Shown piece after piece: positions 3,918 through 62,361 of a DNA stretch of 64,000 nucleotides (its first letter is position 1; each line of letters starts with the position of its first letter). The notes below the pieces were generated by a model. That model was not told the DNA's origin. It did no database searches and saw only the letters and a program-made list of their open reading frames with translations. The stretch is from contig DATHSA010000054.1 of the NCBI GenBank assembly GCA_035464675.1, forward strand, positions 7,998 to 71,997. The letters are read 5' to 3'. The DNA is from Acidimicrobiia bacterium (GTDB lineage Bacteria > Actinomycetota > Acidimicrobiia > Spongiisociales > UBA11373). The translations under genes were made by a program, and so were the position numbers.

Positions 3918-3948
3918 CAGTCGCCAGTCACCAGTCACCAGTCACCAG
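3918..3948. repeat. Heptanucleotide tandem array CAGTCRC x4.4
   Basis: cagtcgc cagtcac cagtcac cagtcac cag, read directly. Intergenic between the response-regulator stop and the M23 start. Confidence 0.9.
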
Positions 3949-3977
3949 CAGGATGCGTCAGACCCCGCGGGCGCGTC

Positions 3978-3998
3978 TTGCCAATTGCCAATTGCCAG
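3978..3998. repeat. Heptanucleotide tandem array TTGCCAA x3
   Basis: ttgccaa ttgccaa ttgccag, immediately followed by the hairpin at 4003-4023. Confidence 0.85.
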
Positions 3999-4002
3999 TC
4001 GC

Positions 4003-4023
4003 GGGACGAGCGAAGCGAGTCCC
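4003..4023 (-). terminator. Stop-codon-abutting hairpin with GCGAAGC core
   Basis: GGGAC-GAGCGAAGCGA-GTCCC. Its last nt is the first nt of the TAG complement (4023-4025) of the response regulator. The same 13-nt core recurs at 46945-46957. Confidence 0.5.
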
Positions 4024-4409
4024 TACGCGATCGCCTCGGTGGGGCCGGCGAGCAGGCCGAGCGCAACACTGCGGAGATCGTCCGGACGGAACGGCTTGGT
4101 GAGGAACGCATCGGCACCGCCGCGGTCGGCGCGCTCCCTGGTCTCCTCCTGGGCATGGGCGGTGAGCACGAGCACCTTCATCGCCCGGGTGCGCGCATCT
4201 GAGCGAATGCCATCGAGCACCTCCCAGCCGTCCATCCTGGGAAGGCCGACGTCGAGGATGAGGAGATCGGGTTGCGTGGTGAGCGCAGCCTCGAGACCTG
4301 TTGGGCCGTCGGAACGGGTCTCGACCTCCACGCCCGCAGGGCGCAGGCACACCGAGATGAGCCGCTGTATGACGGCGGAATCCTCGACGACCAGTACACG
4401 CTGAGCCAC
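4023..4409 (-). CDS. Stand-alone CheY-like receiver-domain response regulator
   Basis: VLVVEDS...DLLILDVGLPRMDG...VLVLTA...FLTKPF are canonical receiver motifs. 128 aa with no output domain. GTG start. Confidence 0.9.
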   Translation of the reverse strand: MAQRVLVVEDSAVIQRLISVCLRPAGVEVETRSDGPTGLEAALTTQPDLLILDVGLPRMDGWEVLDGIRSDARTRAMKVLVLTAHAQEETRERADRGGADAFLTKPFRPDDLRSVALGLLAGPTEAIA

Positions 4410-4490
4410 TTCACCAGACCTTCGTGTGACCTCGAGACAGGTATCGACTCGGCATCCGTCGCCCTTGAGAGGATCAGGGTCCGGCGCTCC

Positions 4491-5918
4491 CTACACCAGC
4501 CTCCGCACGGGACGCGTCGTTGGAATGGCCACCCGCTCCACGAAGCGCTCCAACTGACGAAGGTTGCGCACCTCGTGGACCTCGTCGCAAGCCTCGGCGT
4601 AGACACCCATCACCGAGTCGCCGGTGTCCCAGTAGCGGCGTCGCTCGGGATTCAGCCAGTACAGCGACCGCGCCGCGGAGGCGATTCGCACCAGGGCGCC
4701 CGGGTTCGGGTCGTGATAGTTGGAACGAGCATCGCCGGTGACGATGACGACCGTCCGCGGCGTGATGGCGTCGAAGTACTCGTCGGCGAACGTCCCGAAC
4801 GCGTTGCCGTAGTCGCTGTGTCCGTCCAGCCACACGACTTCGGCCTCGGTCCCAACGCGCTTCATCGCAACTGCGAAGTCGACCCCGGGGCCGAAGAACC
4901 GGGTCACCTCGTCGATCGTGTCGATGAACGCGAACGTGCGCACCTTGCTCAGCTGGGATGCGATCGCGTGCACCAATTGCATGGTGAACCGGGCGAATGT
5001 CGCCACCGAGCCGCTGATGTCGGTGAGCATCACGATCTCCGGCCTTCCCGGTCGGGGTGAACGGAAGCGAGGGTCGACGGGCACCCCGCCGGTCTGAAGT
5101 GACGAGCGAACCGTCCGTCGGACGTCGAGCCGTCCGTCGCGGCCCCGGCGCCGGCGTCGCGCCAGCCGGGTGGCGAGCTTGCGCGTGAGAGGATGCACTG
5201 CCTCTTCGATCCGCGACAGGTCCTCACGAGTGGCGGTGCTGAGATCGATGTCCTCGACCAGCGGACGGCGCAAGGTGCGAGCGACCGCCGACCGGCCCCG
5301 GTCGACGACCAGACGGCGGCGGATCTCGGCTCGGACTGCCTCCCGGAACTCCTCGATTCGACGGTCGACCTCGTCGCGCGTCAGTCGGATCTCGATGGCC
5401 GAAGGCTGCTCCGGTTCGAGATCCCCGCGGAGCCGCTCCGACAGGTCTTCGAGATCGAGCCGACGGAGCACACGGTACAGGTAGTAGGCACCCCCGACCG
5501 GGCGGCCCGGCTCCATACCGGCCAGTCGGGAGACGGCGAGCCGGGCGACCGCTTCCATGAGCCCGTGGTCTCCATCGCGCAGTGATGTGAACAATGCAGC
5601 GACGAGGTCGTCGACATCGCCCTCACCGGCACCGGTGCCCCCGCTGCCGGCCAGTGCCCGCATGTCCTCCTCACGACGGCGTTCTTCATCCGCACCGGTC
5701 GGTGGTGTGAGGGCAAAGAATGCCTCGAAGGCAGCCTCGAACGCATCGACATGGCGGGCGCTCTTGACGAGCGTCGCCCCCAGTGCCGCCTTGAGCGCGG
5801 GTCGGGATCCGATCTCGACATGTTCGAGAGCCCTCGCTGCATCGACCGTCTCGACCATCGAGACCGGGATGCCCGCCTCCCGCAACTCACCGACGAATGC
5901 CGCGAGAAAGCCGGCCAT
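4491..5918 (-). CDS. VWA domain protein, CoxE-like
   Basis: 475 aa. The C-terminal VWA region (IVMLTDISGSV...VVIVTGDARSN) and the N-terminal helical region are typical of CoxE-type partners of MoxR ATPases. Its ATG overlaps the MoxR stop by 1 nt. Confidence 0.8.
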   Translation of the reverse strand: MAGFLAAFVGELREAGIPVSMVETVDAARALEHVEIGSRPALKAALGATLVKSARHVDAFEAAFEAFFALTPPTGADEERRREEDMRALAGSGGTGAGEGDVDDLVAALFTSLRDGDHGLMEAVARLAVSRLAGMEPGRPVGGAYYLYRVLRRLDLEDLSERLRGDLEPEQPSAIEIRLTRDEVDRRIEEFREAVRAEIRRRLVVDRGRSAVARTLRRPLVEDIDLSTATREDLSRIEEAVHPLTRKLATRLARRRRRGRDGRLDVRRTVRSSLQTGGVPVDPRFRSPRPGRPEIVMLTDISGSVATFARFTMQLVHAIASQLSKVRTFAFIDTIDEVTRFFGPGVDFAVAMKRVGTEAEVVWLDGHSDYGNAFGTFADEYFDAITPRTVVIVTGDARSNYHDPNPGALVRIASAARSLYWLNPERRRYWDTGDSVMGVYAEACDEVHEVRNLRQLERFVERVAIPTTRPVRRLV

Positions 5919-6781
5919 CAGCCGGGCGCGGTCCCCTCGGCGAGGCCGGCAGCGACCCGATCGATGTCCGGCTGGTGCTTGAGCAGCACGTGCAGCGTGT
6001 CGGCCACCATGGTCTCGTCGAGGTCGGCCACTCCGAGAGCGAGCAGGGTGCGCGCCCAGTCAAGCGATTCGCTCACCGAGGGCGGTTTGCGCAACGTCTG
6101 GGCCCTGACGCCGGCGACGAAGCGAGCGATTCGGTCCGCGAGCGAGGTGACGAGGCCCGGCACGCGGGTGACGAGGATCTCGATCTCGCGTTCGATCGTC
6201 GGATATCCGATGTGGAGGAACAAGCAGCGCCGCTTGAGTGCCTCCGACAGCTCCCGGGTGTTGTTCGACGTGAGGTAGACCGCAGGCCGACTCGACGCCG
6301 ACACCGTGCCAAGCTCGGGGATCGAGACCTGAAAGTCGCTCAGCACCTCGAGCATGAGCGCCTCGGTTTCGACCTCGACGCGGTCGACCTCGTCGATGAG
6401 GAGCACCACGGGCTCCGACGACCGAATCGCCTCGAGCAGTGGTCGGGTCAGCAGGTAGTCCTCGCCGAAGATGTCCTCCTCGATCTCCGACCACTCTCGA
6501 CCCTGATCGGCCTGGAGGCGAAGAAGCTGCTTGCGGTAATTCCACTCGTAGAGCGCCTTCGCCTCGTCGAGGCCCTCGTAGCACTGCAGCCGGATGAGCC
6601 GCCTGTTCGTGGCCGCCGCGACGGCCTTCGCGAGTTCCGTCTTTCCCACGCCGGCCGGCCCCTCGACGAGCACCGGCTTTTCCAGCCTGTCGGCGAGGAA
6701 CACGACCTGGGCGATGCGGTCGTCGGCCAGATAGCCCTGCCCGGAGAGCGCAGGCTTGACGGAATCGGGATCGGGGAACAT
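5918..6781 (-). CDS. MoxR/CoxD-like AAA+ ATPase
   Basis: Walker A GPAGVGKT, Walker B VLLIDEVD, 287 aa, with the MoxR-type C-terminus. Confidence 0.88.
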   Translation of the reverse strand: MFPDPDSVKPALSGQGYLADDRIAQVVFLADRLEKPVLVEGPAGVGKTELAKAVAAATNRRLIRLQCYEGLDEAKALYEWNYRKQLLRLQADQGREWSEIEEDIFGEDYLLTRPLLEAIRSSEPVVLLIDEVDRVEVETEALMLEVLSDFQVSIPELGTVSASSRPAVYLTSNNTRELSEALKRRCLFLHIGYPTIEREIEILVTRVPGLVTSLADRIARFVAGVRAQTLRKPPSVSESLDWARTLLALGVADLDETMVADTLHVLLKHQPDIDRVAAGLAEGTAPG

Positions 6782-6801
6782 CGTGAGGATTGTACGGTCG
6801 A

Positions 6802-6843
6802 CCCGTTACCCGTTACCCGTTTCCCGTTGCCCGATACCCGTGT
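6802..6843. repeat. Heptanucleotide tandem array CCCGTTN x6
   Basis: cccgtta cccgtta cccgttt cccgttg cccgata cccgtgt. Intergenic between the obg stop and the MoxR start. Confidence 0.9.
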
Positions 6844-6866
6844 CAGCGACACCCGGGCAGCCGATT

Positions 6867-6901
6867 GGTGACGGGCGACCGGCGACGGGCGACGGGCGAC
6901 G
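6867..6901. repeat. Heptanucleotide tandem array GGYGACS x5
   Basis: ggtgacg ggcgacc ggcgacg ggcgacg ggcgacg. Ends 6 nt before the obg stop-codon complement (6907-6909). Confidence 0.9.
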
Positions 6902-6906
6902 ACCGG

Positions 6907-8448: not shown

Positions 8449-8940
8449 TCAGGACTCCTTGTCGGACGACTTTGCTGCGGTCTTCTTGGCCGTGGTCTTC
8501 TTGGCCGCAGGCTTCTTGGCCGTGGTCTTCTTGGCCGCAGGCTTCTTGGCCGTGGTCTTCTTGGCCGCAGGCTTCTTCTCGGCGGGCTTCTCCTCCTCCG
8601 ACGAGTCGGTGTCCGCCTTCGCCGCCTTCTTCTTCGGCGCCTCGATCTTCACGACCTCAAGCGTCGTGTACTTCTGGCGGTGGCCGCCGCGGCGACGGTA
8701 CCCCGTCTTTGCCTTGTACTTGAAGATATCGACCTTGTCTCCGGCAGACTCGCCGACGACCTTGGCGGTCACCTTGGCGGATTTGAGCTCGTCGCGGTTC
8801 GAGTACACCTTGCCCTTGGCATCGACGACGAGGAGCGGCGTGAAGGTGATCTCGCCGTCCTCGCGCACGCGCTCTACATCGATGACATCGCCTTCGCGTA
8901 CCTTCGTCTGCTTGCCGCCCGAGCGGATGATGGCGTACAT
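8449..8940 (-). CDS. rplU: 50S ribosomal protein L21 with long Lys/Ala-rich C-terminal tail
   Basis: ATG 8940 gives [23 protein letters not shown].... About 60 aa of tail follow: ...[32 protein letters not shown]. Confidence 0.92.
8475..8578. repeat. 30-bp tandem repeat x~3.4 inside the rplU 3' coding region
   Basis: The unit cgtggtcttcttggccgcaggcttcttggc is perfect at 8491-8520 and 8521-8550 and near-perfect at 8551-8580. It encodes [10 protein letters not shown] units. Confidence 0.9.
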
Positions 8941-8983: not shown

Positions 8984-9004
8984 GAGTCACCAGTCACCAG
9001 TCGC
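8984..9004. repeat. Heptanucleotide tandem array SAGTCRC x3
   Basis: gagtcac cagtcac cagtcgc, the same unit family as 3918-3948. Followed by gggtCCCGGGCgac gagtgacgggc. Confidence 0.8.
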
Positions 9005-9027
9005 ACGGGTCCCGGGCGACGAGTGAC

Positions 9028-10575: not shown

Positions 10576-10863
10576 GAACGAATCCCTTCGACGCCCGCGC
10601 CTGCGGGCCCTTGATTGAATCGGGCCGTCGGACCGGTGAGACGGCGCCCGCGCGGACCGGCGATGAAGGTCGGTCGCTGTGGTCGACGGAGACGGACGTC
10701 CTCACTGAAATGCTCCGGTCTCGACGGAGGGGGTGGGCGATCCACCAGAGGATCTCGCCCACGGAACCAAACGTTAGCAGGGGGGTCTGTGATTCCCGGT
10801 AGGAGCCTCCCGTCGCCGGCTTGCAGCCACCGACAGGGCCCACGCCCTCCGGATGGAATCGGG

Positions 10864-10891
10864 CTGGTGACTGGAGGCTGGTGGCTGGTAG
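10864..10891. repeat. Heptanucleotide tandem array CTGGWRR x4
   Basis: ctggtga ctggagg ctggtgg ctggtag, 12 nt upstream of the tdk ATG. It is the reverse complement of the CAGTCAC/TCACCAG family. Confidence 0.8.
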
Positions 10892-10902
10892 CTTCTTGGC
10901 AC

Positions 10903-11505
10903 ATGGACCGCAGAGACGATCGGGGCTGGGTGGAGGTGATCTGCGGCCCCATGTTCTCGGGCAAGAGCGAGGAGCTGATCCGGAGGATCACCCGCTACAA
11001 CATCGCTCGGGTCCCGACACAGACCTTCAAGCCGGCCATCGACGACCGCTACGCCACCGACTCGGTCGTCTCGCACTCCTCGCTCACCACGGCCGCCGAA
11101 CCCGTCGCCGACAGCACCGAACTGCTCAACCGCGTCAGAGAGTCGACAGTCGTCGTCGGAATCGATGAGGCGCAGTTCTTCGACGACGGCCTCGTGGACG
11201 TGGTCGCCCAGCTCGCCGACGCCGGTAAGAAGGTGATCGTGGCCGGCCTCGACCTCGACTATCTGGGGCGCGCCTTCGAGCCCATTCCGACACTCATGAC
11301 TCGGGCCGAGTACGTCACCAAGAGCCTCGCCGTCTGCCACCGATGCGGAGGCGCCGGCATGTTCACACAGCGCGTGATCGCCTCCGACGAACTGGTCGTG
11401 CTCGGGGCCGAGGGCGCATACGAGGCCCGCTGCCGCCGCTGCTACGACCCCGGGGAGGGCCAGCAGGAGCGCCTCGAGATCGAGTCGGAGACCGCGCCAG
11501 GATGA
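10903..11505 (+). CDS. tdk: Thymidine kinase
   Basis: ATG 10903 gives MDRRDDRGWVEVICGPMFSGKSEELIRR (P-loop). C-terminal zinc-ribbon cysteines CHRCG...CRRC. Confidence 0.92.
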   Translation: MDRRDDRGWVEVICGPMFSGKSEELIRRITRYNIARVPTQTFKPAIDDRYATDSVVSHSSLTTAAEPVADSTELLNRVRESTVVVGIDEAQFFDDGLVDVVAQLADAGKKVIVAGLDLDYLGRAFEPIPTLMTRAEYVTKSLAVCHRCGGAGMFTQRVIASDELVVLGAEGAYEARCRRCYDPGEGQQERLEIESETAPG

Positions 11506-17599: not shown

Positions 17600-17791
17600 A
17601 TCCGCCCCTGTTGGAGTGCGGGGAGTGTACCCCGGCGATGAATTTGAGCACGCGAGAACCGATCCGACAGGGTCGTTGTGCCCGAGAAGAGCCCCTGGCC
17701 ACCAGCAAGAAGGCCCTCCGCCATCCGCCTTCGGCAAGACGCGTGCCGGGTGAAATCCCGAGAGAATCCTCGCGAGAGGAGCCTTCTCCTG

Positions 17792-17826
17792 CGGAGGGCG
17801 GAGGGCGGACGGCGGTCGGCGGCCTG
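17792..17826. repeat. Heptanucleotide tandem array CGGWSGG x5
   Basis: cggaggg cggaggg cggacgg cggtcgg cggcctg, ending directly at the ndk stop-codon complement (17827-17829). Confidence 0.8.
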
Positions 17827-18225
17827 CTACTCGAAGAAGATCTCCAGCTCGCGCTCGGCACTCTCTGGCGAGTCGGAACCGTGGACGATGTTCTCGGTGA
17901 TGATCGTCCCGAGATCCCCGCGGATCGTCCCCGGGGCGGCGTCGAGGGGGTTGGTGGCGCCCATGAGGCCCCGGGCCACTGCCACCGCCGACGGGCCGGA
18001 CCACTCCATGGCCACGACCGGGCCGCTTGTGATGAAGGACACCAGATCGTCGAAGAACGGCTTGTCGACGTGCTCCGCATAGTGGCGCCGCGCCATCTCC
18101 TCGGGGATGGTGAGCATGCGGAGGCGCTCCAGGATGAGTCCCTTGCGCTCGAACCTCGTCATGACCTCTCCGACGAGCCCGCGCCGAACACCATCCGGCT
18201 TGACCATGACAAACGTGCGTTCCAT
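17827..18225 (-). CDS. ndk: Nucleoside diphosphate kinase
   Basis: [21 protein letters not shown]...NIVHGSDS (active-site His). Confidence 0.95.
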
Positions 18226-18245
18226 GTGGAGGCGGATGGTACAGA

Positions 18246-18308
18246 ATCGTTGCCCGTTCCCCGTTCCCCGTTGCCCGGGCGGAGAGAACGCGGGTGACGG
18301 GCAACGGT
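18246..18308. repeat. Inverted heptamer arrays (CCCGTTS x5, then NNACGGG x3)
   Basis: atcgttg cccgttc cccgttc cccgttg cccgggc ... acgcggg tgacggg caacggt. 18248-18257 is the exact complement of 18297-18306. Confidence 0.85.
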
Positions 18309-18313
18309 CGCCG

Positions 18314-19501
18314 TCAGGCGACCCCCAGCGCCTTCCTCGCCTCGGCGACGACGTAGATCGAGCCGGTGATCAGGATCGGATCGCCGGTGGCCATCGCCTC
18401 GGCCACGGCGGCGGCCACCGAGGCGTGGGCGGTGGCATCGACGCCGAGACGCTCCCGGGCGAGGGACGCCATGGTCTCGGCCTCGAGCGCCCGCGGGCTG
18501 TCGGCTGCCGCCGAGTGGACCTCCTGCACCAGCCCGTCGAGATGTCGAAGCATCGCCGGGACGTCTTTGTCCGCCATCGCGCCGACCACTGCGACCCAAC
18601 GGATATCCGGGAACTCCTCGCGCAGTGCCGTCGCCAGGGCGTGCATCCCCTGGGGGTTGTGGGCCCCGTCGGTGAGGATCAGCGGGTCACCCGCCACGAG
18701 CTCCATCCGCCCTGGAGAGGTCACGGTGGCCGCGGCCTCGCGTACCCCCGCCTCGTCGAGCGCACGATCGAACAGGGCCTCGACTGCTGCCACCGCGGTG
18801 GCGAAGTTGGTGACCTGATGCCTGCCCCGGAGACCCAGCCTCACGTCCTCGTAGGCCCCGAAGACGCCCTCCAGGTCGAATGCCCATCCGCCTTCCGTCC
18901 GCCCGGGGTCGACGATGCGGTAGTCCTCCCCCAGCCTCAGCCACCGGGCGTTCTGCTCTCTGACACGGGTTTCGGCGACCTCGAGCGCCTCCGGATCCAG
19001 GTCCCCGGTGACCAGGACCCCCTGGTCGTCGAGAATCGCCAGCTTCTCGGCCGCGATCTCGGGGATGGTGTCGCCCAGATAGGCGGTGTGCTCCAGGCCG
19101 ATGGTGGTGATCACCGCCACCGTCGACGTGGCGGCGTTGGTGGCGTCGAGCCTGCCACCCAATCCGGTCTCCACCACACCGACGTCGACCGCTCGCTCGG
19201 CGAACCATGCGAAGGCCAGCGCCGCTGTGAGTTCGAAGTACGTCACGAGATCCCCGGTCCGTTCCTCGTAGAGGTCCACGATCGGGGCGATGTCGGCGAC
19301 GGCCTCGGCGAACTCGCCCGGGGTCATGGGGAACCCGTTCAGGTGATAGCGCTGCTCCACGGCGTCCAGGTGGGGTGACGTGAACAAGCCGGCTCCGAGA
19401 CCATGCGCCGCGACAAGGGTCATGATCATTCGCGCGGTCGACGTCTTCCCGTTGGATCCGGCTATGTGAATGATCGGATACGCCTCGTCCGGCCGGGCCA
19501 A
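18314..19501 (-). CDS. folC: Folylpolyglutamate synthase / dihydrofolate synthase
   Basis: [13 protein letters not shown]-loop and Mur-ligase fold. The ORF-track start is TTG at 19501, but in-frame FolC-like sequence (DYEAAVAYLDSHIGRGVKPGLDRITGLLDI) continues upstream to the valS stop without any ATG, GTG or TTG. Confidence 0.85.
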
Positions 19502-26770: not shown

Positions 26771-26836
26771 CCTCTCCTCCCGGTGACGACAAACGGCGAG
26801 AACGGCCGAGCACGCGCTCCAACCGCCTCGCCTCGG

Positions 26837-26911
26837 GGTGACCGAGGGGACTCGAACCCCCGACCTCCAGGGCCACAACCTGGCGCTCTAACCGCCTGAG
26901 CTACGGTCACC
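26837..26911 (-). tRNA. tRNA-His (anticodon GTG) with encoded G-1
   Basis: G-GTGACCG...CCAGG-TTGTGGC-CCTGG...GGGGGTTCGAGTCCCCT-CGGTCAC-C. Confidence 0.9.
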
Positions 26912-26915
26912 ATGC

Positions 26916-27149: not shown

Positions 27150-27221
<72 letters not shown>

Positions 27222-45864: not shown

Positions 45865-45887
45865 AGTCGGCCCGGGAATGAGCAGAG

Positions 45888-46359: not shown

Positions 46360-46401
46360 TGGAGACAGCGTGCGCGCCAACGCGGGGCAACGGGCAACGA
46401 T

Positions 46402-46911: not shown

Positions 46912-46940
46912 CGAATCGCGAATCGCGAATCGCGAATCGC
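46912..46940. repeat. Heptanucleotide tandem array CGAATCG x4
   Basis: cgaatcg x4 perfect, directly followed by the hairpin at 46941-46961. Confidence 0.92.
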
Positions 46941-46961
46941 GGCCCGAGCGAAGCGAGGGCC
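46941..46961 (-). terminator. Hairpin with GCGAAGC core after ftsX
   Basis: GGCCC-GAGCGAAGCGA-GGGCC, 7 nt from the ftsX stop complement (46968-46970). The core is identical to 4008-4018, with compensatory outer-stem changes. Confidence 0.5.
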
Positions 46962-48725: not shown

Positions 48726-48815
48726 GAGAGCGAAGGGCGGAGAGCAGAGGGCGAAACCTCGGCATCGATGCCCGCTCGGGGCGGAGAGGCGGAAGGGTAA
48801 GGCAGGAGGCCGGGA
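48726..48815. repeat. Purine-rich period-7 tracts downstream of prfB
   Basis: gagagcg aagggcg gagagca gagggcg (48726-48753) and gcggaga ggcggaa gggtaag gcaggag gccggga (48781-48815), ending at the prfB stop. Confidence 0.55.
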
Positions 48816-48816: not shown

Positions 48817-49930
48817 CTAGCCCGCGGACTCCGCCTGTTCTCGCCGCCACTGGAGGTAGGCGTCGACGAATCGGCCGATCTCGCCGTCGAGGACGCCGTT
48901 GACGTTGCCGATCTCCACGTCGGTCCTGAGGTCCTTGACCATCTGATACGGCTGGAGGACATACGATCGGATCTGCCGGCCCCAGGCCGCCTCGCCCTGC
49001 TCACCGCGGATCTCGTCCAGCTGCTCCTCACGATCCCGGCGGGCGCGCTCTGCGAGCCGGGCGGCAAGAAGGGTCATGGCGCGGTTCCGATTCTGCAGCT
49101 GGGAGCGCTCAGCCTGGCAGGCGACGACGATCCCGGTCGGGATGTGGGTGATCCTCACCGCGGAATCGGTCTTGTTGACATGCTGCCCGCCTGCTCCCGA
49201 GGCCCGGAAGGTGTCGATCCGCAGCTCCTCCGGGTCGATGGCCACGTCCTCGATCTCGACCTCCGGTATGACATCGACCCCGGCAAAGGACGTGTGTCGT
49301 CGCGAGGCCGAGTCGAAGGGACTTATGCGAACGAGGCGGTGCACTCCACGCTCCCCCTCCAGGGTCCCGTAGGGACGATCACCCCGGACCGTGATCGTCG
49401 CCGACCTGATCCCGGCCTCCTCGGCCTCCAGGTACTCGTCGACCTCGACCTCGAAGCCCTCGCGCTCCAGGAATCGCAGGTACATGCGAAGCAGCATCTC
49501 CGCCCAATCGGAGGCATCGACCCCGCCGGCGCCGGCGTGGACGCTCAAGATCGCCGGGCTGTCGTCATACTCGCCGAAGTACAACGCCTCGCGCTCCAGT
49601 TTCGACAGATCCTCGTCGATCCGGCCCAATTCGACGGCGACGTCGGATGCGGCACCGGCATCGGACTCCTCCTCGGAGAGCTCCAGAAGCACCTCGGCGT
49701 CGTCGATCGCGGCGGCCAGTGAGCCGACCCGGTCGATGATCCCTTCGTAGCGAGAGAGGGTTCGAGTCACCTCGAGGGCGTTGTCACGGTCGTCCCAGAG
49801 ATGAGGGTCGGCCGACCGGTCTCTCAGGTCGTCGAGTGCGGCGCGCTTCGCTTCGACGTCAAAGGAACCTCCTGGCGTCGTCGAGGCGCGATTGGAGCGA
49901 GGCGATGAGGGCGCGGGGATCGTCGTGCAT
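48817..49930 (-). CDS. prfB: Peptide chain release factor 2, with programmed +1 frameshift
   Basis: ORF0 is ATG 49930 ... AGG AGG TTC CTT TGA C (TGA at 49859-49861). A +1 shift joins it to ORF 48817-49770 (LDVEAKRAALDDLRDRSADPHLWDD...). The SPF and GGQ (SGAGGQHVN) motifs are present. Confidence 0.93.
49858..49873 (-). promoter_or_regulatory. RF2 autoregulatory frameshift site
   Basis: An internal SD-like AGGAGG sits 3 nt upstream of the CUU UGA C slippery/stop motif. Confidence 0.9.
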
Positions 49931-50533: not shown

Positions 50534-50744
50534 TGCAGATCGCGGTGCGCCATCTGGCACGGGGCCGGCTGGAGGAGGCAGGCATCCCGCCCCTGAGACC
50601 TCCCGTCACGCGCCGAATGTGCCTCACCGGCCGGACCACACCGAACCCGCAGAGACAAGGAGCAGGAGTCCGGTGATGGTGGCAGCAGGGGCCCGTTGAC
50701 TCATATGCAGTTCGCCGGTAACCGAAAGGGCGACGGGCGACCGA

Positions 50745-53372
<2,628 letters not shown>

Positions 53373-53562
53373 TGGATGCTCATGTTAGGGAGCGGCCGAT
53401 CGTCTGAGGAGAGGGCCGCTCGCCACCTCCAACGCTCGATCCGCTCGCCCTCTTCCAGCAACAGAGCGATCCGTGATCCAGGACGGGTGACGGTAACCGG
53501 GCCGTGACGTCGTTCCGGGTGAAGACCATCGGCGGGCCCTCTCGAAGGATCCGGCGACTGCC

Positions 53563-55505: not shown

Positions 55506-55662
55506 CCGAGCGAAGTCTCTCTCGGCACTGTGACACGCCCGGCGACCCACGGAACCGCCGGAGGGACTAGCGCGTTGCCCGTCTCCGCAAATGGACACTA
55601 CTCGCGGTTGAGTGACCACTCTCTGTGACCTACAGTTACCCCAGCAGGGCAAAGGGGAACTC

Positions 55663-57432
55663 ATGCCGTTCGATGTCGAAGTGAGCCGTGAGCGTCGTCG
55701 GCAGCGGCGGCTCCGGAGGCTCGCCTGGTTCCTGGCTCCCATCGTCGCCTGGCTGTGGCTCCGCATCGCCGCAGGAAACCCGGTGTCGCCCGGCTGGCCC
55801 GACCTCGGCCCCGACGCCGCCACGTGGCTTCCGGGATTCTTCGTGATCCTCCTCCTCGTGCTTCTGATCCTCGGCCCGATGCTCGGGAATGGCCGCTCCC
55901 CCGAGGTCGTCTACCTGCCCGAGCAGATCGACGTCTCATTCGACTCGGTCAAGGGCCTCGGGCCTGTGCTCGTCGAGGTGCGCCACACCCTGGAGGTCTT
56001 CCTCAACCATCAGCGGTTCCGCGAGGAGATGGGGGGCGCCCCACGCCGCGGGGTCCTCTTCGAAGGGCCGCCGGGAACCGGCAAGACGCACACTGCCAAG
56101 GCGATGGCCAAGGAGGCCGGCGTGCCCTTCCTGTTCGTCTCATCCACGGCTTTCCAGAGCATGTGGTACGGCGCCACGGCGCGGAAGATCAGATCCTTCT
56201 TCCGGAATCTGCGAAAGGTGGCCCGCGCCGAGGGAGGCGCCATCGGATTCATCGAGGAGTTCGATGCGATCGGCGCCACGCGGGGTGGCATGGATCGCTT
56301 CGCCGCGACCCGCATCGAGCGCTCCGCCATCTCCGAGGGCACCGGCGGGGTCGTCAACGAGCTGCTCACACAGATGCAGAGCTTCGACGATCCGCCCCGG
56401 TCCATCCGGCTGTCGAACTGGTGGCGGCGTCTCATCAACCGTTTCCTGCCCCCGACCGTGCAGATCAAGCTGCGCTCGGCTCCCTTCGCCAACGTCCTGC
56501 TGATAGGGGCGACGAACCGTGCCGACGCTCTCGACCCCGCCCTGCTCCGCCCGGGCCGATTCGATCGCATCCTCCACTTCGGCCTGCCCGCCCGCAGGGA
56601 TCGTCGCGAGCTCATCGATCTCTTCCTCGAGAGAAGGGCGCACGACGAGACGGTCGACGACGTCGCCCGCGACGACCTCGCGGCGTCGACTATCGGATAC
56701 ACGCCTGCCTCGCTGGAGAGGCTGTTCGACGAGGCGCTGCTGTTCGCTCTGCGCGACGAGCGACTCCGCCTCGGGGCCGAGGATCTGCGCCGGGCGCGCA
56801 TGGACATCGAGATCGGCCTGGCCGAGCCCACGGAGTACACCCCGGAGGAACGGGAGACCATCGCCGTGCACGAGTCGGGCCATGCCGTCGTCGCCCATCT
56901 CGTTGGGAGGGGACGGAAGCTCGACGTGCTGTCGATCGTGAAGCGGAGAGACGCCCTCGGCCTTCTCGCCCACAGCGAAACCGAAGAGCGTTACACGCGA
57001 CGCCGGACCGAGTCGCTGGCGTTGATCCAGATCGCGCTCGGAGGGATGGTCGCCGAGGAGCTCTTCTACGGGGAGTCGGGCACCGGTCCGGCTGCGGATC
57101 TTGCCACTGCCACGAAGATGGCCGCCGAGATGATCGGCGCAATGGGATTGGGTGGTTCGCTCGTCTCGCTCCTGGCGGCCGACCCGGGACTCGTCGGTGG
57201 CGACCTCACCGCCCGGGTGCTGGCCGACGACCGTGCCCGCACCGCGGTCGAGGAGCTTCTCGACGAGCAGAAGGCGGTGGTGACCGCACTGCTCCGTGAC
57301 AACCGCCGCCTCATCGAGGCCCTCCGCGACGCCCTACTCGAACGCAACGAGCTGGTCTCCCGAGAGATCACCGAGGTGATCGAGGCCGCGAAGGAGCGCT
57401 CCGGCGCGGTGCTCGATCTGACGGACGCCTAG
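55663..57432 (+). CDS. FtsH-like membrane AAA+ metalloprotease paralog
   Basis: ATG 55663, two N-terminal TM helices, GPPGTGKTHTAKA Walker A, LIGATNRADALDPALLRPGRFDR, and HESGHAVVAH zinc motif. Confidence 0.8.
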   Translation: MPFDVEVSRERRRQRRLRRLAWFLAPIVAWLWLRIAAGNPVSPGWPDLGPDAATWLPGFFVILLLVLLILGPMLGNGRSPEVVYLPEQIDVSFDSVKGLGPVLVEVRHTLEVFLNHQRFREEMGGAPRRGVLFEGPPGTGKTHTAKAMAKEAGVPFLFVSSTAFQSMWYGATARKIRSFFRNLRKVARAEGGAIGFIEEFDAIGATRGGMDRFAATRIERSAISEGTGGVVNELLTQMQSFDDPPRSIRLSNWWRRLINRFLPPTVQIKLRSAPFANVLLIGATNRADALDPALLRPGRFDRILHFGLPARRDRRELIDLFLERRAHDETVDDVARDDLAASTIGYTPASLERLFDEALLFALRDERLRLGAEDLRRARMDIEIGLAEPTEYTPEERETIAVHESGHAVVAHLVGRGRKLDVLSIVKRRDALGLLAHSETEERYTRRRTESLALIQIALGGMVAEELFYGESGTGPAADLATATKMAAEMIGAMGLGGSLVSLLAADPGLVGGDLTARVLADDRARTAVEELLDEQKAVVTALLRDNRRLIEALRDALLERNELVSREITEVIEAAKERSGAVLDLTDA

Positions 57433-57434
57433 GA

Positions 57435-57522
57435 ACCGTTCCCCGTTGCCGGTTACCCGTTACCCGTGCGTCCGATCGCGTCCGGAGATCGGGGAACGGG
57501 GAACGGCGGGCCGAAGGCCCGC
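57435..57522. repeat. Inverted heptamer arrays plus GAA-triloop hairpin between convergent genes
   Basis: accgttc cccgttg ccggtta cccgtta cccgtgc (57435-57469), then ggggaac ggggaac (57491-57504). 57436-57447 is the exact complement of 57495-57506. The hairpin GCGGGCC gaa GGCCCGC (57506-57522) abuts the ahcY stop. Confidence 0.88.
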
Positions 57523-58769: not shown

Positions 58770-58808
58770 GGGGTGGAGGTTACCGGTGCCCCGACCCGGC
58801 CCGGCAGC

Positions 58809-58976
58809 CGCAACTCGCAATACGCAATACGACAGAGCGCGTCAACTGTCCCGCCACGATCGGTCATATTGCGTATCGCGCCGAGCGGCGCGATCACGCC
58901 ACTAGCGATGCCCTGCGGGCCGCGTCGGCCCGAGCCGCGGGACTTGCGTATCGCGGGGGCCGCCCGAGGCGGCCCC
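58809..58976. repeat. CGCAATA/TATYGCG heptamer blocks in direct and inverted orientation, plus a 9-bp CGA-triloop hairpin
   Basis: cgcaact cgcaata cgcaata cgacaga (58809-58836); tattgcg tatcgcg (58867-58880); acttgcg tatcgcg (58942-58955); GGGGCCGCC cga GGCGGCCCC (58956-58976), abutting the upstream gene's stop. Confidence 0.85.
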
Positions 58977-59962: not shown

Positions 59963-60129
59963 TCGGTCTCCTTCGGCGGCGTCTCGTCGACGACCATGTG
60001 AGGCACCCCGTCTCGCACCGGGTAGGTGCGGCCGCACCCGGTGCAGACGATCTGGTCGCCCGACTCCTCCACACGGCTCCGGCATACCGGACACTGCAGA
60101 ATCGACAGCAGTTCAGGCGGCACCGACAT
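59959..60129 (-). CDS. Trm112-family small zinc-ribbon-like protein (56 aa)
   Basis: Absent from the ORF track (under 60 aa). MSVPPELLSILQCPVCRSRVEESGDQIVCTGCGRTYPVRDGVPHMVVDETPPKETE. ATGA overlap downstream and a 17-nt overlap with the PMM stop upstream. Confidence 0.75.
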   Translation of the reverse strand: MSVPPELLSILQCPVCRSRVEESGDQIVCTGCGRTYPVRDGVPHMVVDETPPKETE

Positions 60130-61462
60130 GTGAGGCCTCCTCCACGATCTGCTTCACCTTCTGTACGAGCGCCTCCACGTGGGCAGCCTTCGGCGCCTCG
60201 ACGTTGAGCCGCAGCACCGGCTCGGTGTTCGACGGGCGCAGGTTGAACCAGCGGTCGTCATAGGTGACCGTCAGGCCGTCGAGGCGGTCCTGGGCGCCGT
60301 CGAACGCGACGGCCACCGCCTCGATCGCCTCGGCCTGGCCGTCCACCTCCAGGTTGATCTCACCCGACTGGGCGAAACGCTCGTAGTCGCCCCGGATCTC
60401 GGACAGCCGCCGGCCGTCCTCGCTGATCAGACGGAGCAGGACCAGCATCGCCAGGATCCCCGAGTCCGCCCGGTAGTGGTCGCGGAAGTAGTAATGGCCG
60501 GAGTGCTCACCACCGAAGACGGCACCGGTCTCCTTCATGACCGCCTTGATGTACGAGTGGCCTACCCGGGTTCGCACCGGCGTCCCCCCACGCTCCCGAA
60601 TCGCCTCGGGCACCGCAGCCGAACAGATCAGGTTGTGCACGACGGTCGCTCCCGGCTCCCGGGCGAGGAACCAGGCGGCGATCATCGCGGTGACGGTGCT
60701 GCCGGGAAGGGACCGTCCGCGGTCGTCGATGAAGAATGCCCTGTCGGCATCTCCGTCGAACGCCACGCCGAGATCGGGCGGATTGCGGTCGATCAGGCGC
60801 TCGAGGTCGAGAAGGTTCTCGGGGCGGAGGGGATCGGGGTGGTGGTTGGGGAAGGTCCCGTCGGGCGCCAGATAGAGCGGGATGAGTGTCGCCGGCAGCC
60901 GCTCGAAGAGATCGGGCACGACCACGCCGGCCGTTCCGTTGCCCCCATCGACGGCGACCCGGAGCTCCCCGATCGATCCGGCATCGACGATGCCCATCAG
61001 GTGATCGATGTAACGCTCCCGGATGTCGACCGGGTGAGTCTCGCCGGTGGCGTCCACCGGCTCGATACCCTTCGCGGCCAGCCGCTTCACGTCGTCGAGC
61101 CCTGAGTCGGCCCCGACGGGAGCCGCCGCGGCGAGGCACAACTTGATGCCGTTGTAGCCCTTGGGATTGTGGGAGGCGGTGATCATGGCCCCCGGCTGGT
61201 CGAGATCCCCGGCGGCGAAATACACCATGTCGGTGGTGACCAGTCCGAGGTCGTCGACATCCACCCCCTGTGACGTGATTCCCTCGATCAGGGCGGTGGC
61301 GAGGATCGGCGAAGAGATCCGAACATCCCGACCGACGGCGATTCGCGGGGCTACCGCGAAGGCGGCGAACGCGGCCCCGATTCGTCGGGCGGCCTCGTCG
61401 TCGAGTTGATCGGGCACGATGCCCCGGACGTCGTAGGCCTTGAAGATCGCATCGAGGTCCAT
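60113..61462 (-). CDS. manB: Phosphomannomutase/phosphoglucomutase
   Basis: ATG 61462 gives MDLDAIFKAYDVRGIVPDQL...ITASHNPKGYNG (active-site Ser loop) ...FDGDADR. Confidence 0.92.
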   Translation of the reverse strand: MDLDAIFKAYDVRGIVPDQLDDEAARRIGAAFAAFAVAPRIAVGRDVRISSPILATALIEGITSQGVDVDDLGLVTTDMVYFAAGDLDQPGAMITASHNPKGYNGIKLCLAAAAPVGADSGLDDVKRLAAKGIEPVDATGETHPVDIRERYIDHLMGIVDAGSIGELRVAVDGGNGTAGVVVPDLFERLPATLIPLYLAPDGTFPNHHPDPLRPENLLDLERLIDRNPPDLGVAFDGDADRAFFIDDRGRSLPGSTVTAMIAAWFLAREPGATVVHNLICSAAVPEAIRERGGTPVRTRVGHSYIKAVMKETGAVFGGEHSGHYYFRDHYRADSGILAMLVLLRLISEDGRRLSEIRGDYERFAQSGEINLEVDGQAEAIEAVAVAFDGAQDRLDGLTVTYDDRWFNLRPSNTEPVLRLNVEAPKAAHVEALVQKVKQIVEEASHVGAA

Positions 61463-61611
61463 GCGCGAATTGTGGCATGCGGGCGGGGCTCGGCCTCGCG
61501 CCGGGCGAATCGTCACCCGTCGCCCGTCGCCGGTGCTGGTGCTGGGGCAGTCGAGAGCCCCGTCCGCGGTGATGGGGCAACGGGCAGACGTCCCCGTACA
61601 CTCCCCCACTG

Positions 61612-62319
61612 ATGCCCGCCTCCATATCCATCGTCATCCCGGTCCACAACGAGGTCGGATTCATGCCGGCGGCGATGGAGCGCCTCATGGCGGAATTGGG
61701 AACCGTCGATGCCACCTTCGAGGTGATCGTCGCCGAGAACGGCTCCACGGACGGCACCGGGGAAGTCGCGGATCAGATCGCCGAGGACGATCCCCGGGTC
61801 AGGGCGCTACGGCTCCCCGAGCCCGACTACGGCGCGGCGATGCGGGCCGGATTCATGGCCTCGACCGGCGAGTGGGTCGTCAATTTCGACATCGACTACT
61901 TCTCGGCCGATTTCCTGCGGGCGGCATTGGAGCTGAGCAATGAGGCGGACATCGTGCTCGCATCCAAGCGTGCCGAAGGAGCCGAGGATCGCCGCAGTCT
62001 GTTTCGCCGCCTCGGGACGCTGGGCTTCAACATCCTCCTCAGACTCATGTTCGGGTCGAAGGTGAGCGACACCCACGGGATGAAGATGGTGCGCGGATCC
62101 CTGGCACGGGAGCTGACCCCGACGGTCATATCGAACCTCGATCTCTTCGACACCGAGCTGGTGATCCGCGCCGAGCGCGCCGGAGCCCGCATCAGGGAGG
62201 TGCCTGCGCGTGTCGAGGAGCTGCGCGACGCCCGTTCCAGTTTCCTCAGCCGGGTGCCGAGGACGCTCAAGGGGATGTGGAGGATCAGACGGGCCCTCCG
62301 GCGCGAGTCAAAGCGATAG
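61612..62319 (+). CDS. Family-2 glycosyltransferase (polyprenol-phosphate mannose/glucose synthase-like)
   Basis: SIVIPVHNE...VAENGSTDGT...DIDY is the GT-A DxD context. 235 aa. Confidence 0.8.
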   Translation: MPASISIVIPVHNEVGFMPAAMERLMAELGTVDATFEVIVAENGSTDGTGEVADQIAEDDPRVRALRLPEPDYGAAMRAGFMASTGEWVVNFDIDYFSADFLRAALELSNEADIVLASKRAEGAEDRRSLFRRLGTLGFNILLRLMFGSKVSDTHGMKMVRGSLARELTPTVISNLDLFDTELVIRAERAGARIREVPARVEELRDARSSFLSRVPRTLKGMWRIRRALRRESKR

Positions 62320-62324
62320 CCCGG

Positions 62325-62361
62325 CTCGTTCCCCGTTTCCCGTTACCCGTTGCCCGTTACC
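62325..62361. repeat. Heptanucleotide tandem array CCCGTTN x5, overlapping a CDS 3' end
   Basis: ctcgttc cccgttt cccgtta cccgttg cccgtta cc. The minus-strand TAA at 62343-62345 and the last residues GVTGNG are encoded inside the array. Confidence 0.88.

Follow-up and report, generated by a model that had tools for sequence, protein, structure and literature searches.

The window, a stretch of 64,000 nt from an Acidimicrobiia (Actinomycetota) chromosome, carries short tandem arrays with a 7-nt period, and the genes flanking them are ordinary housekeeping genes (e.g. SecA, Obg, SmpB, FtsH-like). Arrays proposed in the initial annotation were borne out by Tandem Repeats Finder (TRF) and by direct reading of the sequence, the two giving matching coordinates. 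As for the less regular entries, the arrays at 46385 and 50728 are present but have 2 copies only, and the signal is weak at 58942-58955 and also at 48726-48815, where TRF assigned period 14 and 2 copies to a degenerate RAGRGCG tract. The arrays and their partners are as follows, with the source in brackets:

3918..3948: CAGTCRC, 4.4 copies, solo; in the 632-nt gap between predicted genes 2821-3390(-) and 4023-4409(-); no significant fold, z +0.54 (TRF, sequence)
3978..3997: TTGCCAA, 2.9 copies; the response-regulator gene 4023-4409(-), so identified by an external gene call in locus L083, has its stop 25 nt away (TRF, sequence)
6801..6841: NCCCGTT, 5.9 copies; distal arm of a hairpin, with a G-rich mRNA-sense sequence; the AAA gene 5918-6781(-) starts 19 nt downstream (TRF)
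6870..6901: GACGGGC, 4.6 copies (GCCCGUC in the mRNA sense), stop-adjacent arm; 5 nt past the Obg stop (6907); pairs with 6801-6841 in hairpin 6782-6906, -65.3 kcal/mol, z -3.6, 0/200 shuffles as stable (TRF)
8985..9002: AGTCACC, 2.6 copies; flanked by the RNase E/G and L21 genes; a partial inverted partner lies near 9015-9026, and the fold is weak, z -0.96 (TRF, sequence)
10862..10893: GGCTGGT/GACTGGA, 4.6 copies, reading CCAGCCN/CCAGTCN on the opposite strand; the spacer is divergent, and gene 10930-11505(+) starts 36 nt downstream (TRF, sequence)
17791..17822: GCGGAGG, 4.6 copies (mRNA-sense unit CCKCCGC, rich in C); 4 nt past the stop of gene 17827-18225(-) (TRF)
18248..18277: CGTTSCC, 4.3 copies, distal arm, G-rich in the mRNA sense (TRF, sequence, fold)
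18288..18308: GACGGGCAACGG, degenerate partner arm; 5 nt past the stop of the Mur-ligase-like gene 18314-19501(-); with 18248-18277 it forms hairpin 18226-18313, -39.4 kcal/mol, z -2.05
46385..46399: GGGCAAC, 2.1 copies (GUUGCCC in the mRNA sense); 2 nt past the SmpB stop (TRF)
46912..46941: CGAATCG, 4.3 copies, perfect, quasi-palindromic; between the FtsX and SmpB genes (TRF, sequence)
48726..48753: degenerate RAGRGCG heptads, C-rich in the mRNA sense; 63 nt past the stop of the release-factor gene 48817-49770(-) (TRF, period 14, 2 copies)
50728..50741: GGGCGAC, 2 copies (GUCGCCC in the mRNA sense); 3 nt past the SecA stop (sequence)
57436..57467: CCGTTNC, 4.6 copies; 3 nt past the stop of the FtsH-like gene 55612-57432(+) (TRF)
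57490..57506: CGGGGAA, 2.4 copies, inverted partner of 57436-57467; the convergent AdoHcyase gene has its stop 15 nt away; hairpin within 57433-57521, -48.3 kcal/mol for one strand and -47.4 for the other, each with z about -2.6; a small GC stem, 57507-57521, follows the two arms (TRF)
58816..58831: CGCAATA, 2.3 copies; its inverted partner, TATTGCG/TATCGCG, is at 58867-58880, and the segment 58790-58900 folds with -57.1 kcal/mol, z -2.9 (TRF, sequence)
58867..58880: TATTGCG TATCGCG, inverted partner arm of 58816-58831 (sequence, fold)
61511..61531: CGTCGCC, 3.0 copies, divergent region; assignment uncertain, since it may fall inside an N-terminal extension of ORF 60113-61609(-) (TRF)
62327..62362: CGTTNCC, 5.1 copies, solo; 7 nt past the stop of gene 61612-62319(+); on the opposite strand it encodes the C-terminal GVTGNG (6 codons) of gene 62343-63998(-) together with its TAA stop; unstructured in the fold, z +1.19 (TRF, sequence)

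Perfect period-7 arrays of at least 2.5 copies numbered 9 in the window, all intergenic (9/9), versus a dinucleotide-shuffle expectation of 0.25. At periods 5 and 8-12 no such array was present in the 64 kb, and the 4 observed at period 6 were all coding (4/4). When the window was taken together with 72 related loci of about 20 kb each, 106 period-7 arrays were obtained, versus 3-6 for each of periods 5, 8, 10, 11 and 13; 96/106 were intergenic, in agreement with the claim that the arrays are mostly found in spacers. Enrichment was seen at period 7 (and 14), and the other frame-breaking periods had none. Lag-7 autocorrelation of intergenic DNA relative to background was 1.77x in the window, 3.44x for relatives within the clade and 0.97x for those from sister clades. 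The intergenic 7-base tandem repeats are real, far above chance and present in related loci beyond the window.

In a tree of the FtsH-like protein, arrays occurred in 13/13 genomes of the window's clade at 0.2-1.7 per kb; sister clades had almost none, and a second, distant cluster also possessed them. The arrays were found in dozens of independent MAGs. Convergent spacers had a median of 72 nt in the clade versus 12 nt in the sister clades, which argues that the arrays are added DNA replacing no indispensable element. They are a heritable, genome-wide trait of one Acidimicrobiia clade, not a local element.

As had been proposed, the property in common is the period and not one sequence, 72 canonical units being present among 105 arrays. 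The units, 'unrelated or only partly related' in the initial annotation, are not unrelated but belong to a few recurring families: identical-unit pairs at unlinked sites and in different genomes numbered 67 versus 10.5 expected, and AACGGGN, CCAGTCN and GCGAATY recurred at unlinked sites. In the CCCGTTN family, six core positions were constant while N was any of the four bases; such concentration of variation at one position was not general among the arrays (48 vs 48.9 expected, p about 0.7). In the orthologous spacer after the FtsH-like gene, nearly all clade genomes had heptamers unrelated to one another, and the sister genomes had no array. Blocks and alternations were observed inside arrays, such as (GAGTTTG GAGTCTG)x5 and CGGGAAA x3 followed by CGGGCAA x4, and homologous arrays with conserved flanks (L053 versus L054 and L075) were either equally long or differed by exactly 14 nt. 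Near-identical strains, whose divergence of only about 0.05-0.25% is too small to inform a slippage rate, showed no copy-number difference, and their arrays were identical in independent assemblies apart from a 1-nt deletion at 50728-50741, the only difference seen in any array.

The claimed proximity to stop codons was upheld: an array lay within 10 nt of a stop in 30/101 cases and within 10 nt of a start in 2/113, and in tandem spacers of 150-1000 nt the figure for stops was 11/26 versus 2.0 expected (p=1.6e-6). Stop-adjacent arrays had more C than G in the mRNA sense in 19 cases versus 6 (p=0.015), a skew flipping with the gene strand, and array-free post-stop regions had no C/G skew. In the window, 7/7 stop-adjacent arrays were C-rich in the upstream gene's sense, whichever strand that gene was on, and all of them lie in one replichore, as cumulative GC skew changes monotonically from one end of the window to the other. 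This polarity was not reproduced by CCCGTTN in unrelated metagenome contigs, for which crude gene calls gave 3 sense versus 9 antisense. Inverted partner arrays accompanied 45/118 arrays (about 40%) versus 14-17 in controls, and paired arrays form long imperfect hairpins that lack U-tracts; in several spacers these are strong, z ranging from -2 to -3.6. The GC hairpin described beside the arrays is indeed often present, but it is mostly the inverted partner array itself. Hairpins were more stable on the sense strand in 4 cases versus 6, i.e. without sense-strand bias. U-tract terminators were not found and canonical intrinsic terminators were not enriched in this DNA, and an Rfam search yielded no match. 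Arrays that are solo, have a G-rich sense strand or are located in divergent spacers are numerous.

A tentative explanation, possible but clearly short of probable, is that the arrays constitute a transcription-linked 3'-end module selected directly after stop codons. In one version, C-rich, G-poor single-stranded heptads would serve as Rho loading sites; in the other, array/inverted-array stem-loops would act as U-tract-less terminators or 3' exonuclease barriers; the unit sequence could vary freely provided that composition, 7-nt register or pairing was kept. Stop adjacency holding in long spacers, the C excess at stops next to unskewed array-free regions, its uniformity on both strands of one replichore in the window, the enriched inverted partners and the strong hairpins all fit such a module; rut sites are likewise C>G, YC-rich and without consensus (PMC9499579), and the lack of enrichment of canonical intrinsic terminators would demand another termination mode. 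However, the sister clades do with 12-nt convergent spacers and no arrays, the solo, sense G-rich and divergent arrays as well as the hairpins' lack of sense-strand advantage count against it, the CCCGTTN polarity was not reproduced in the metagenome contigs, and pairing of arrays would mask a rut site. Published evidence for Rho preferring a 7-nt register was not found, and reporter and transcriptome studies of the heptamers in Xanthomonas and Nostoc did not reveal a function (PMC4692102). Recurrence of a limited set of units at unlinked spacers and across genomes, together with the constant core six of CCCGTTN, would also be expected of multivalent sites for a clade-specific protein binding in 7-nt steps, e.g. 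a cold-shock/OB-fold protein with one heptamer per domain, which would read a small core vocabulary such as CCCGTT or CCAGTC. The clade-restricted onset fits the gain of a trans-acting factor, and CspB is cited in PMC4679880 as binding heptamer repeats, one protein per heptamer. This is nevertheless unlikely, given the 72 different canonical units, the unrelated units at an orthologous spacer across genomes and the fact that single-position variation is not general; no candidate protein was identified.

Folding into G-quadruplexes or i-motifs, with a G3 tract plus 4-nt loop per unit affecting transcription or replication, is less probable still. Each heptad of AACGGGN (the commonest family), ACGGGCG, AGGCGGG and ACTGGGG has one G3 tract, arrays of at least 4 such units (e.g. 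6801-6841, 18248-18277 and 62327-62362) fit G3N4 x4, and such structures have been put forward for the heptamers of Xanthomonas (GGGAATC) and Nostoc (GGGGAYT) (PMC4692102). However, a G3 or C3 tract was present in 41% of clade units versus 31% of random intergenic 7-mers (p=0.057), units with such tracts had no different copy number (median 4.0 vs 4.3), and CAGTCRC, TTGCCAA, CGAATCG and CGCAATA are incapable of quadruplexes, yet quadruplex-incapable arrays behave alike in the genome. Least probable of all is a dispersed miniature mobile element (REP/BIME- or MITE-like), or chance or an assembly artefact. Inverted pairs in intergenic DNA resemble REP pairs and some units recur, but the loops and flanks of different pairs have no consensus and many units are unrelated, in support of the earlier view that the arrays are not one mobile element. 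Chance and artefact are refuted by the shuffles (0.25 vs 9 observed) and by the independent assemblies of near-identical strains, the dozens of independent MAGs also speaking against an artefact.

The reading that we consider best, with a probability somewhat above even, is that the arrays are heptanucleotide simple-sequence repeats (SSRs) arising from 7-nt-biased slippage and tolerated only outside reading frames. Repeats of this sort are the long SSRs (LSSRs) of Mrazek and the STRRs of cyanobacteria. A lineage-specific bias in replication or repair may favour slippage or misalignment in 7-nt steps (14-nt double steps), which would seed, lengthen and shorten short arrays. Since seven is not a multiple of three, arrays would persist only at sites where they disrupt neither a reading frame nor a promoter or ribosome-binding site, mainly directly 3' of stop codons, and at times they would run into gene ends and supply the last codons plus the stop. 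Inverted pairs probably result from expansion in both arms of a stem already present, or from intra-hairpin template switching that copies one arm onto the other, the paired arms giving long imperfect stem-loops. Different units in orthologous spacers would reflect array turnover that is fast relative to protein divergence. Period specificity, intergenic location, clade restriction, internal blocks, 0/14-nt differences, unit turnover and added DNA were counted for slippage, as were the lack of a function-specific signal, the ordinary housekeeping neighbours and the literature parallels. On the other side, slippage alone leaves the preference for 7 over 5, 8, 10 or 11 unexplained, and the unit recurrence (67 vs 10.5), the stop-hugging in 150-1000 nt spacers (11/26 vs 2.0) and the C>G mRNA-sense polarity flipping with gene strand (19 vs 6) were counted against it.

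The initial annotation was wrong in stating that no described class matches, heptanucleotide repeats being known (Mrazek 2007; cyanobacterial STRR; Xanthomonas GGGAATC); the arrays are a new bacterial example, from an Acidimicrobiia clade, of a described, still unexplained excess of heptanucleotide SSRs in non-coding DNA. According to Mrazek, Guo and Shah 2007 (PNAS), as cited in PMC4679880 and PMC4692102, heptanucleotide repeats are the best-known over-represented longer SSR class in prokaryotes, with which the 7n3 rows of Huang and Mrazek 2014 agree (PMC4060949), and polymerase slippage is among the proposals for heptamers in the cited literature (PMC4692102, PMC4679880, PMC4060949). Common to prokaryotic LSSRs and the clade arrays, as far as these accounts go, are over-represented 7-nt units, patchy across lineages, with many units per genome and those of non-multiple-of-3 length kept out of genes (PMC4060949). 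The LSSR surveys, as represented there, do not cover Acidimicrobiia MAGs and give Actinobacteria a median 7n3 score of 0; stop adjacency, mRNA-sense polarity and clade-level onset were not found reported in this literature, in which Mrazek 2007 is represented by citing papers.

A close parallel in placement is with the Xanthomonas GGGAATC arrays, 89-93% of which are intergenic, at a mean of 28 nt from the upstream ORF versus 160 nt from the downstream ORF, with about 70-75 of about 185 (about 40%) forming inverted pairs capable of stem-loops (Rehm et al. 2015, PMC4692102). The Xanthomonas GGGAATC and Nostoc GGGGA(C/T)T heptamers share with the clade arrays an intergenic location, proximity to the upstream ORF, inverted pairs, heterogeneous units with a conserved core, length and sequence varying between related species at the same sites, and housekeeping neighbours; they differ in having one dominant G-rich unit per genus, which folds into G-quadruplexes, and a preference for 4 units (PMC4692102). 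The clade arrays, in contrast, comprise dozens of units, mostly quadruplex-incapable and without significant G3 enrichment, and the arm next to the stop is rich in C on the sense strand. Cyanobacterial STRRs (short tandemly repeated repetitive sequences) of Calothrix (PCC7601), Nostoc and Anabaena, as cited in PMC4692102 (Mazel et al. 1990), are likewise several intergenic heptamer families in one lineage. They belong to another phylum. The genome of the window is high-GC, and the sequence compared here covers its 64 kb and related loci, each about 20 kb long. The STRR1 unit CCCCAGT presumably equals the ACTGGGG/GACTGGG units in L011 and L081.

Phase-variation SSRs (Haemophilus, Neisseria) are also short tandem units and change length by slippage, but they occupy the promoter or the 5' coding part of surface/antigen genes and vary within populations, whereas the clade arrays lie 3' of SecA, Obg, SmpB and FtsH-like genes and are unchanged between near-identical strains. 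The Beggiatoaceae TAACTGA repeats are intergenic heptamer direct repeats of 2-6 copies with a patchy phylogeny, but have a single unit located a few nt upstream of start codons (MacGregor 2015, PMC4679880), while the clade arrays avoid starts (0-2 within 10 nt) and are placed after stops. TAACTGA can provide stops in all three frames (PMC4679880), comparable to the TAACGGG that gives the stop of 62343-63998.

TRF returned period-7 calls at essentially all positions where the initial annotation had placed dispersed intergenic heptanucleotide arrays, and direct reading of the sequence concurred, so that the arrays are real. The calls in the window were as follows.

Period-7 arrays called by TRF in the window (position, unit, copy number)
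3918-3948, CAGTCAC, 4.4 copies
3978-3997, TTGCCAA, 2.9 copies
6801-6841, ACCCGTT, 5.9 copies
6870-6901, GACGGGC, 4.6 copies
8985-9002, AGTCACC, 2.6 copies
10862-10893, GGCTGGT, 4.6 copies
17791-17822, GCGGACG, 4.6 copies
18248-18277, CGTTCCC, 4.3 copies
46385-46399, GGGCAAC, 2.1 copies
46912-46941, CGAATCG, 4.3 copies
57436-57467, CCGTTAC, 4.6 copies
57490-57506, CGGGGAA, 2.4 copies
58816-58831, CGCAATA, 2.3 copies
62327-62362, CGTTACC, 5.1 copies

Most members of the original list thus stood; the weak ones were those at 58942-58955 and 48726-48815, as well as those at 46385 and 50728, each with two copies. The "purine tract" at 48726-48815 was a degenerate RAGRGCG array that TRF scored at period 14. 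Genes were called in the window, which has a G+C content of 66-68%, by codon usage, and these calls agreed with external calls on near-identical contigs. They included the housekeeping genes for SecA, ValRS, Obg, RNase E/G, an FtsH-like AAA protease, AdoHcy hydrolase, FtsX and a Mur-ligase-like protein; SmpB and a release factor were added by the external calls.

The period-7 feature is genuine and statistically overwhelming. In a run-length test that counted only perfect arrays with 2.5 or more copies, with dinucleotide-preserving shuffles as the null, the window possessed nine at period 7, all nine intergenic, versus 0.25 in the shuffles, whereas periods 5 and 8-12 yielded none and period 6 yielded four, all four coding. 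Autocorrelation of the intergenic DNA of the window was 1.77x background at lag 7 and 1.50x at lag 14, and that of coding DNA contained the 3-nt series only. TRF was also run on a larger set, made up of the window and 72 related loci for which gene calls were usable (1.16 Mb, 15% intergenic). There, the comparison with other periods proposed in the initial annotation again singled out 7: 106 arrays of at least 2.5 copies were found, 96 of them intergenic, along with 17 at period 14 (14 intergenic), versus 3-6 at each of periods 5, 8, 10, 11 and 13 (5, 4, 4 and 6 at 5, 8, 10 and 11), while arrays of periods 6, 9, 12 and 15 were mostly coding. Copy number was mostly 2-6 per array.

The initial statement that no described class matches such arrays was incorrect, since prokaryotic heptanucleotide LSSRs and the arrays of Xanthomonas and Nostoc have been described (PMC4679880, PMC4692102). 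As reported through these two papers, Mrazek et al. (2007) found heptanucleotides to be the most abundant long-SSR class in most repeat-rich prokaryotic genomes, which included Burkholderia, two cyanobacteria, Xanthomonas and three Actinobacteria, and suggested that DNA polymerase interacts with just this length, 7 nt, which favours slippage. Huang and Mrazek (2014) found '7n3' to be the only SSR class with positive medians in several phyla (Planctomycetes 2.0, Chloroflexi 1.0, Deferribacteres 1.0 and Bacteroidetes 0.75, with Actinobacteria at 0; PMC4060949). Rehm et al. (2015) described GGGAATC arrays in Xanthomonas and GGGGAYT arrays in Nostoc, found no function for them, and stated that it "remains to be elucidated" (PMC4692102). 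The present arrays resemble those of Rehm et al., of which 89-93% are intergenic, with a mean distance of 28 nt to the upstream ORF versus 160 nt to the downstream one, and about 70-75 of about 185 are in inverted pairs; heterogeneous units, variation at the same site between sister species and housekeeping neighbours are also shared (PMC4692102). Both the proximity to gene 3'-ends and the frequent inverted pairs were observed here, as were all the properties of LSSR/STRR-type repeats, namely an excess of exact 7-nt units, period specificity, non-coding bias, many dispersed units with a patchy distribution and, in a small sample, length change by whole units. In contrast, the TAACTGA repeats of Beggiatoaceae have a single unit and lie just upstream of start codons (PMC4679880). 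The common consensus and defined ends of REP/BIME or MITE elements were not found, as units, loops and flanks differed between sites. Neither was the pattern of contingency SSRs, which vary between close strains and are located in promoters or 5' coding regions of genes for surface or virulence functions; the present arrays are found 3' of genes with housekeeping functions. A heptanucleotide excess was already on record for some prokaryotes in 1990 and 2007; what is new here is its occurrence in a high-GC actinobacterial lineage with a sharp phylogenetic contrast; our literature search found no description of heptad arrays in Acidimicrobiia.

In a species-level genome collection, the 80 best matches to the FtsH-like protein were almost all from Acidimicrobiia/Actinomycetota MAGs (57-83% identity), and period-7 arrays were confined mainly to a subset of the related loci. 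In a neighbour-joining tree of this protein, all 13 members of the clade containing the window (the window and the loci L001, L058, L024, L039, L007, L028, L002, L012, L015, L011, L005 and L008) carried arrays at 0.2-1.7 per kb, whereas the sister clades were essentially array-free, with none, for example, in about 22 kb each of L003 and L019. Intergenic lag-7 autocorrelation was 3.44x in clade loci versus 0.97x in sister loci. A second, distant cluster (L062, L053, L054, L056, L075 and L068, plus L032) carried arrays at moderate density and appears to be independent of the clade. These findings indicate that the trait is heritable and lineage-specific, and it has probably arisen more than once. 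This contrast between clades is the most useful new handle. It allows the cause to be tested by relating the gene content of MAGs to their heptad density. A metagenome scan for (CCCGTTN)3CCCGTT gave, among the matches listed, more than 120 contigs with a G+C content of 35-76%. Other heptad arrays were present on these contigs too, with 147 arrays at period 7 versus 4 at period 5 and 18 at period 8. Arrays of this unit with at least four copies on so many of the listed contigs indicate amplification of the same unit in many organisms that are not related, and some contigs of low GC content may come from eukaryotes.

The array family has no one defining sequence, as 72 canonical units were counted among 105 arrays. 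Identical units nevertheless recurred in unlinked spacers and different genomes, with 67 such pairs versus 10.5 expected (maximum 20) when letters were shuffled within units; the leading units were AACGGGN (= NCCCGTT), ACCAGTC, ACGGGCG, AGGCGGG and AATTCGC. Single-linkage clustering of units at one mismatch or fewer was dropped in favour of these pair counts, because random sets percolate too. In the spacer directly downstream of the FtsH-like gene (55612-57432, + strand), nearly every clade genome had a different unit, while sister-clade genomes had no array there and a convergent gene about 10-25 nt on.

Units following the FtsH-like stop codon in the window and related loci
window, CCCGTTN
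L001, ATRTCAG
L004, TAGCCAG, at least 15 copies, reaching the contig end
L008, GTTCARA
L011, GACTGGN, more than 12 copies
L012, GTCNCCA
L028, AGTYACC plus inverted arm
L039, CCGCWSC plus inverted arm
L058, CCTCCCG
L062, ACAGCCG plus inverted arm

Heptamers containing ACTGG recurred in several clade genomes, and GACTGGG/GGGGACT (L011, 2620-2710; near-identical strain contig L081, 262-288) corresponds to the STRR1 heptamer of cyanobacteria, CCCCAGT. One hypervariable position beside a recognised 6-nt core, although conspicuous for CCCGTTN in the window, was not general: per-array maxima of positional variation summed to 48 versus 48.9 expected (p ~0.7).

When array positions were mapped relative to stop codons, as the initial annotation had proposed, a bias toward gene 3'-ends was found, with 30 of 101 distances to a stop being 10 nt or less versus 2 of 113 distances to a start. 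Of the 26 tandem spacers that were 150 nt or longer, 11 contained an array no more than 10 nt from the stop, where uniform placement would give 2.0 (p=1.6e-6), and none contained one that close to the start. Seven arrays in the window started 2-7 nt past a stop, following the genes for Obg, the Mur-ligase-like protein, SmpB, SecA and the FtsH-like protein and the genes at 17827-18225 and 61612-62319; in L001, L004 and L008 the stop codon itself lay inside the array. The convergent gene 62343-63998 (- strand; 551 aa product without a Pfam match) takes its final six codons (GVTGNG) and its TAA from the CCCGTTN array at 62327-62362 (array-encoded end at 62343-62362), and arrays can therefore remodel gene 3'-ends. 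They also represent added DNA, as the median convergent spacer was 72 nt in the clade versus 12 nt in sister clades.

Among the 25 stop-adjacent arrays with non-zero skew, 19 had C>G in the mRNA sense versus 6 with the opposite skew (p=0.015, mean skew +0.20), while array-free post-stop regions showed no C/G skew. In the window this polarity was observed for genes of both strands, and since the cumulative GC skew was monotonic, placing these genes in one replichore, it follows transcription rather than replication. For CCCGTTN, the sense polarity was not reproduced on the metagenome contigs (3 sense versus 9 antisense among the matches listed, with crude gene calls and mixed taxa).

A reverse-complement partner was located within 150 nt for 45 of 118 arrays, versus 14 and 17 in the reverse-only and complement-only controls. 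The paired spacers were predicted to fold into long imperfect hairpins of array and inverted array, while the solo arrays at 3918, 10862, 17791 and 62327 were unstructured on folding.

Predicted folds of paired spacers in the window
6782-6906, -65.3 kcal/mol, z -3.6
18226-18313, -39.4 kcal/mol, z -2.05
57433-57521, + strand -48.3 kcal/mol, z -2.55; - strand -47.4 kcal/mol, z -2.57
58790-58900, -57.1 kcal/mol, z -2.9

Units of the two arms often differed slightly (e.g. NCCCGTT versus GCCCGTC), which suggests that each arm may be homogenised separately. RNA-level selection on the hairpins was not supported, as sense folds were not more stable than antisense folds (4 versus 6, n=10).

Several arrays had an internal sub-structure, such as (GAGTTTG GAGTCTG)x5, CGGGAAA x3 followed by CGGGCAA x4, and alternating CCCGTTA/CCCGTTC; judged from sequence, such block and alternating patterns are what one- and two-unit slippage would be expected to produce. 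Lengths of homologous arrays in L053, L054, L056 and L075 (flanks 88-95% identical) differed by 0 or exactly 14 nt, the whole-unit change expected of slippage, in a small sample. L081 and L083 are near-identical contigs of ENA sample ERZ27272641, and in them unit number was unchanged in the arrays at 3918, 3978, 6801, 6870, 46385, 46912 and 48726, the strains being only about 0.05-0.25% diverged, and the sole array difference was a 1-nt deletion in that at 50728; all that this comparison shows is that the arrays lack the hypervariability of contingency loci. Look-ups of exact proteins found no other strain. Purifying selection on spacers, considered because of the low intergenic divergence of L081 (4/1618 versus 105/5946), was withdrawn because the mismatches cluster: 106 fell in the first ~1 kb of secA versus 3 in the remaining 6.5 kb, nearly all in one recombined tract at 52329-53392, with the remaining alignment about 99.95% identical. 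Upstream of secA, L081 had a different gene (L081 1-321 versus window 53373-53562), which together with the clustering points to a putative recombination tract or synteny break. A spacer specific to this strain consisted of TAA, (CCAGTCN)4, a loop and (GGGGACT)3. In L004 (4468-4577), the contig ends within the TAGCCAG copies, which start at the FtsH-like stop codon; thus, long arrays terminate short-read assemblies, and their true lengths are underestimated in MAGs. Since such arrays end contigs and can supply gene ends, they matter in practice for MAG assembly and annotation.

The most likely mechanism, which we favour somewhat above even, is that slippage biased to 7 nt would generate the arrays, selection against disruption of reading frames, promoters and ribosome-binding sites would filter their sites, and hairpin arms would expand in parallel. 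Slippage alone does not account for three observations: the adjacency to stops in long spacers, the C-rich polarity that follows transcription, and the vocabulary of recurring units. These leave room for a role of the arrays at the transcription or RNA level, which is possible but doubtful. A rut site would be a poorly structured, YC-rich RNA segment with C>G downstream of the stop; C exceeded G in 19 of the 25 stop-adjacent arrays, but many were paired with a G-rich arm, and any Rho dependence is putative. The literature search found nothing specific on a 7-nt register in Rho binding. No intrinsic terminator (hairpin plus U-tract) was found at any array, terminator-like sites overall numbered 9 versus 5.7 and 9 versus 6.0 in shuffles (not significant), no canonical promoters were found at arrays, and Rfam detected only tRNAs and tmRNA in the window, with no other structured RNA family. 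G-quadruplexes were rejected as a general explanation: units with G3/C3 accounted for 41% versus 31% background (p=0.057), copy number was no different, and the G3-4 tract in every unit and the preference for four units of quadruplex heptamers were not found.

A protein reading the heptads would draw on the same stop adjacency, polarity and unit vocabulary, and is considered quite improbable. Also a long shot is the proposal in which a trans-acting factor that arose at the base of the clade would write or read nucleic acid in a 7-nt register right after stops, such that C-rich sense heptads, with or without a G-rich return arm, would form a replaceable 3'-end module, e.g. a Rho-loading or termination platform, whose unit drifts while period, position and polarity are kept by selection. 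Both stop adjacency and transcription-linked polarity are simple predictions open to Term-seq.

Several other features were observed in the window and its strain contigs. The tRNA cluster at 26835-28120 comprises six genes (His, Arg, Gly, Leu, Lys and Pro), and few protein-coding genes could be called with confidence in this region. The tmRNA (45885-46234, - strand), with tag peptide AEDNFALAA, lies about 170 nt downstream of SmpB (46402-46860, - strand) on the same strand; a GC-rich stem and a heptad array of two copies are located between them. An L21 (rplU)-like gene (8449-8940, - strand) encodes a lysine/alanine-rich C-terminal tail with a 10-residue unit repeated 3-4 times, seen by TRF as a coding period-15/30 tandem repeat at 8479-8591 (100% matches at period 30). 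Contig L083 (8133-8190 versus window 488-531) has about 100 nt of extra GC-rich, partly duplicated sequence (GACCGGCGTC...GGCGACGTGCGGCC), which adjoins a tRNA-Ala gene (window 405-479).
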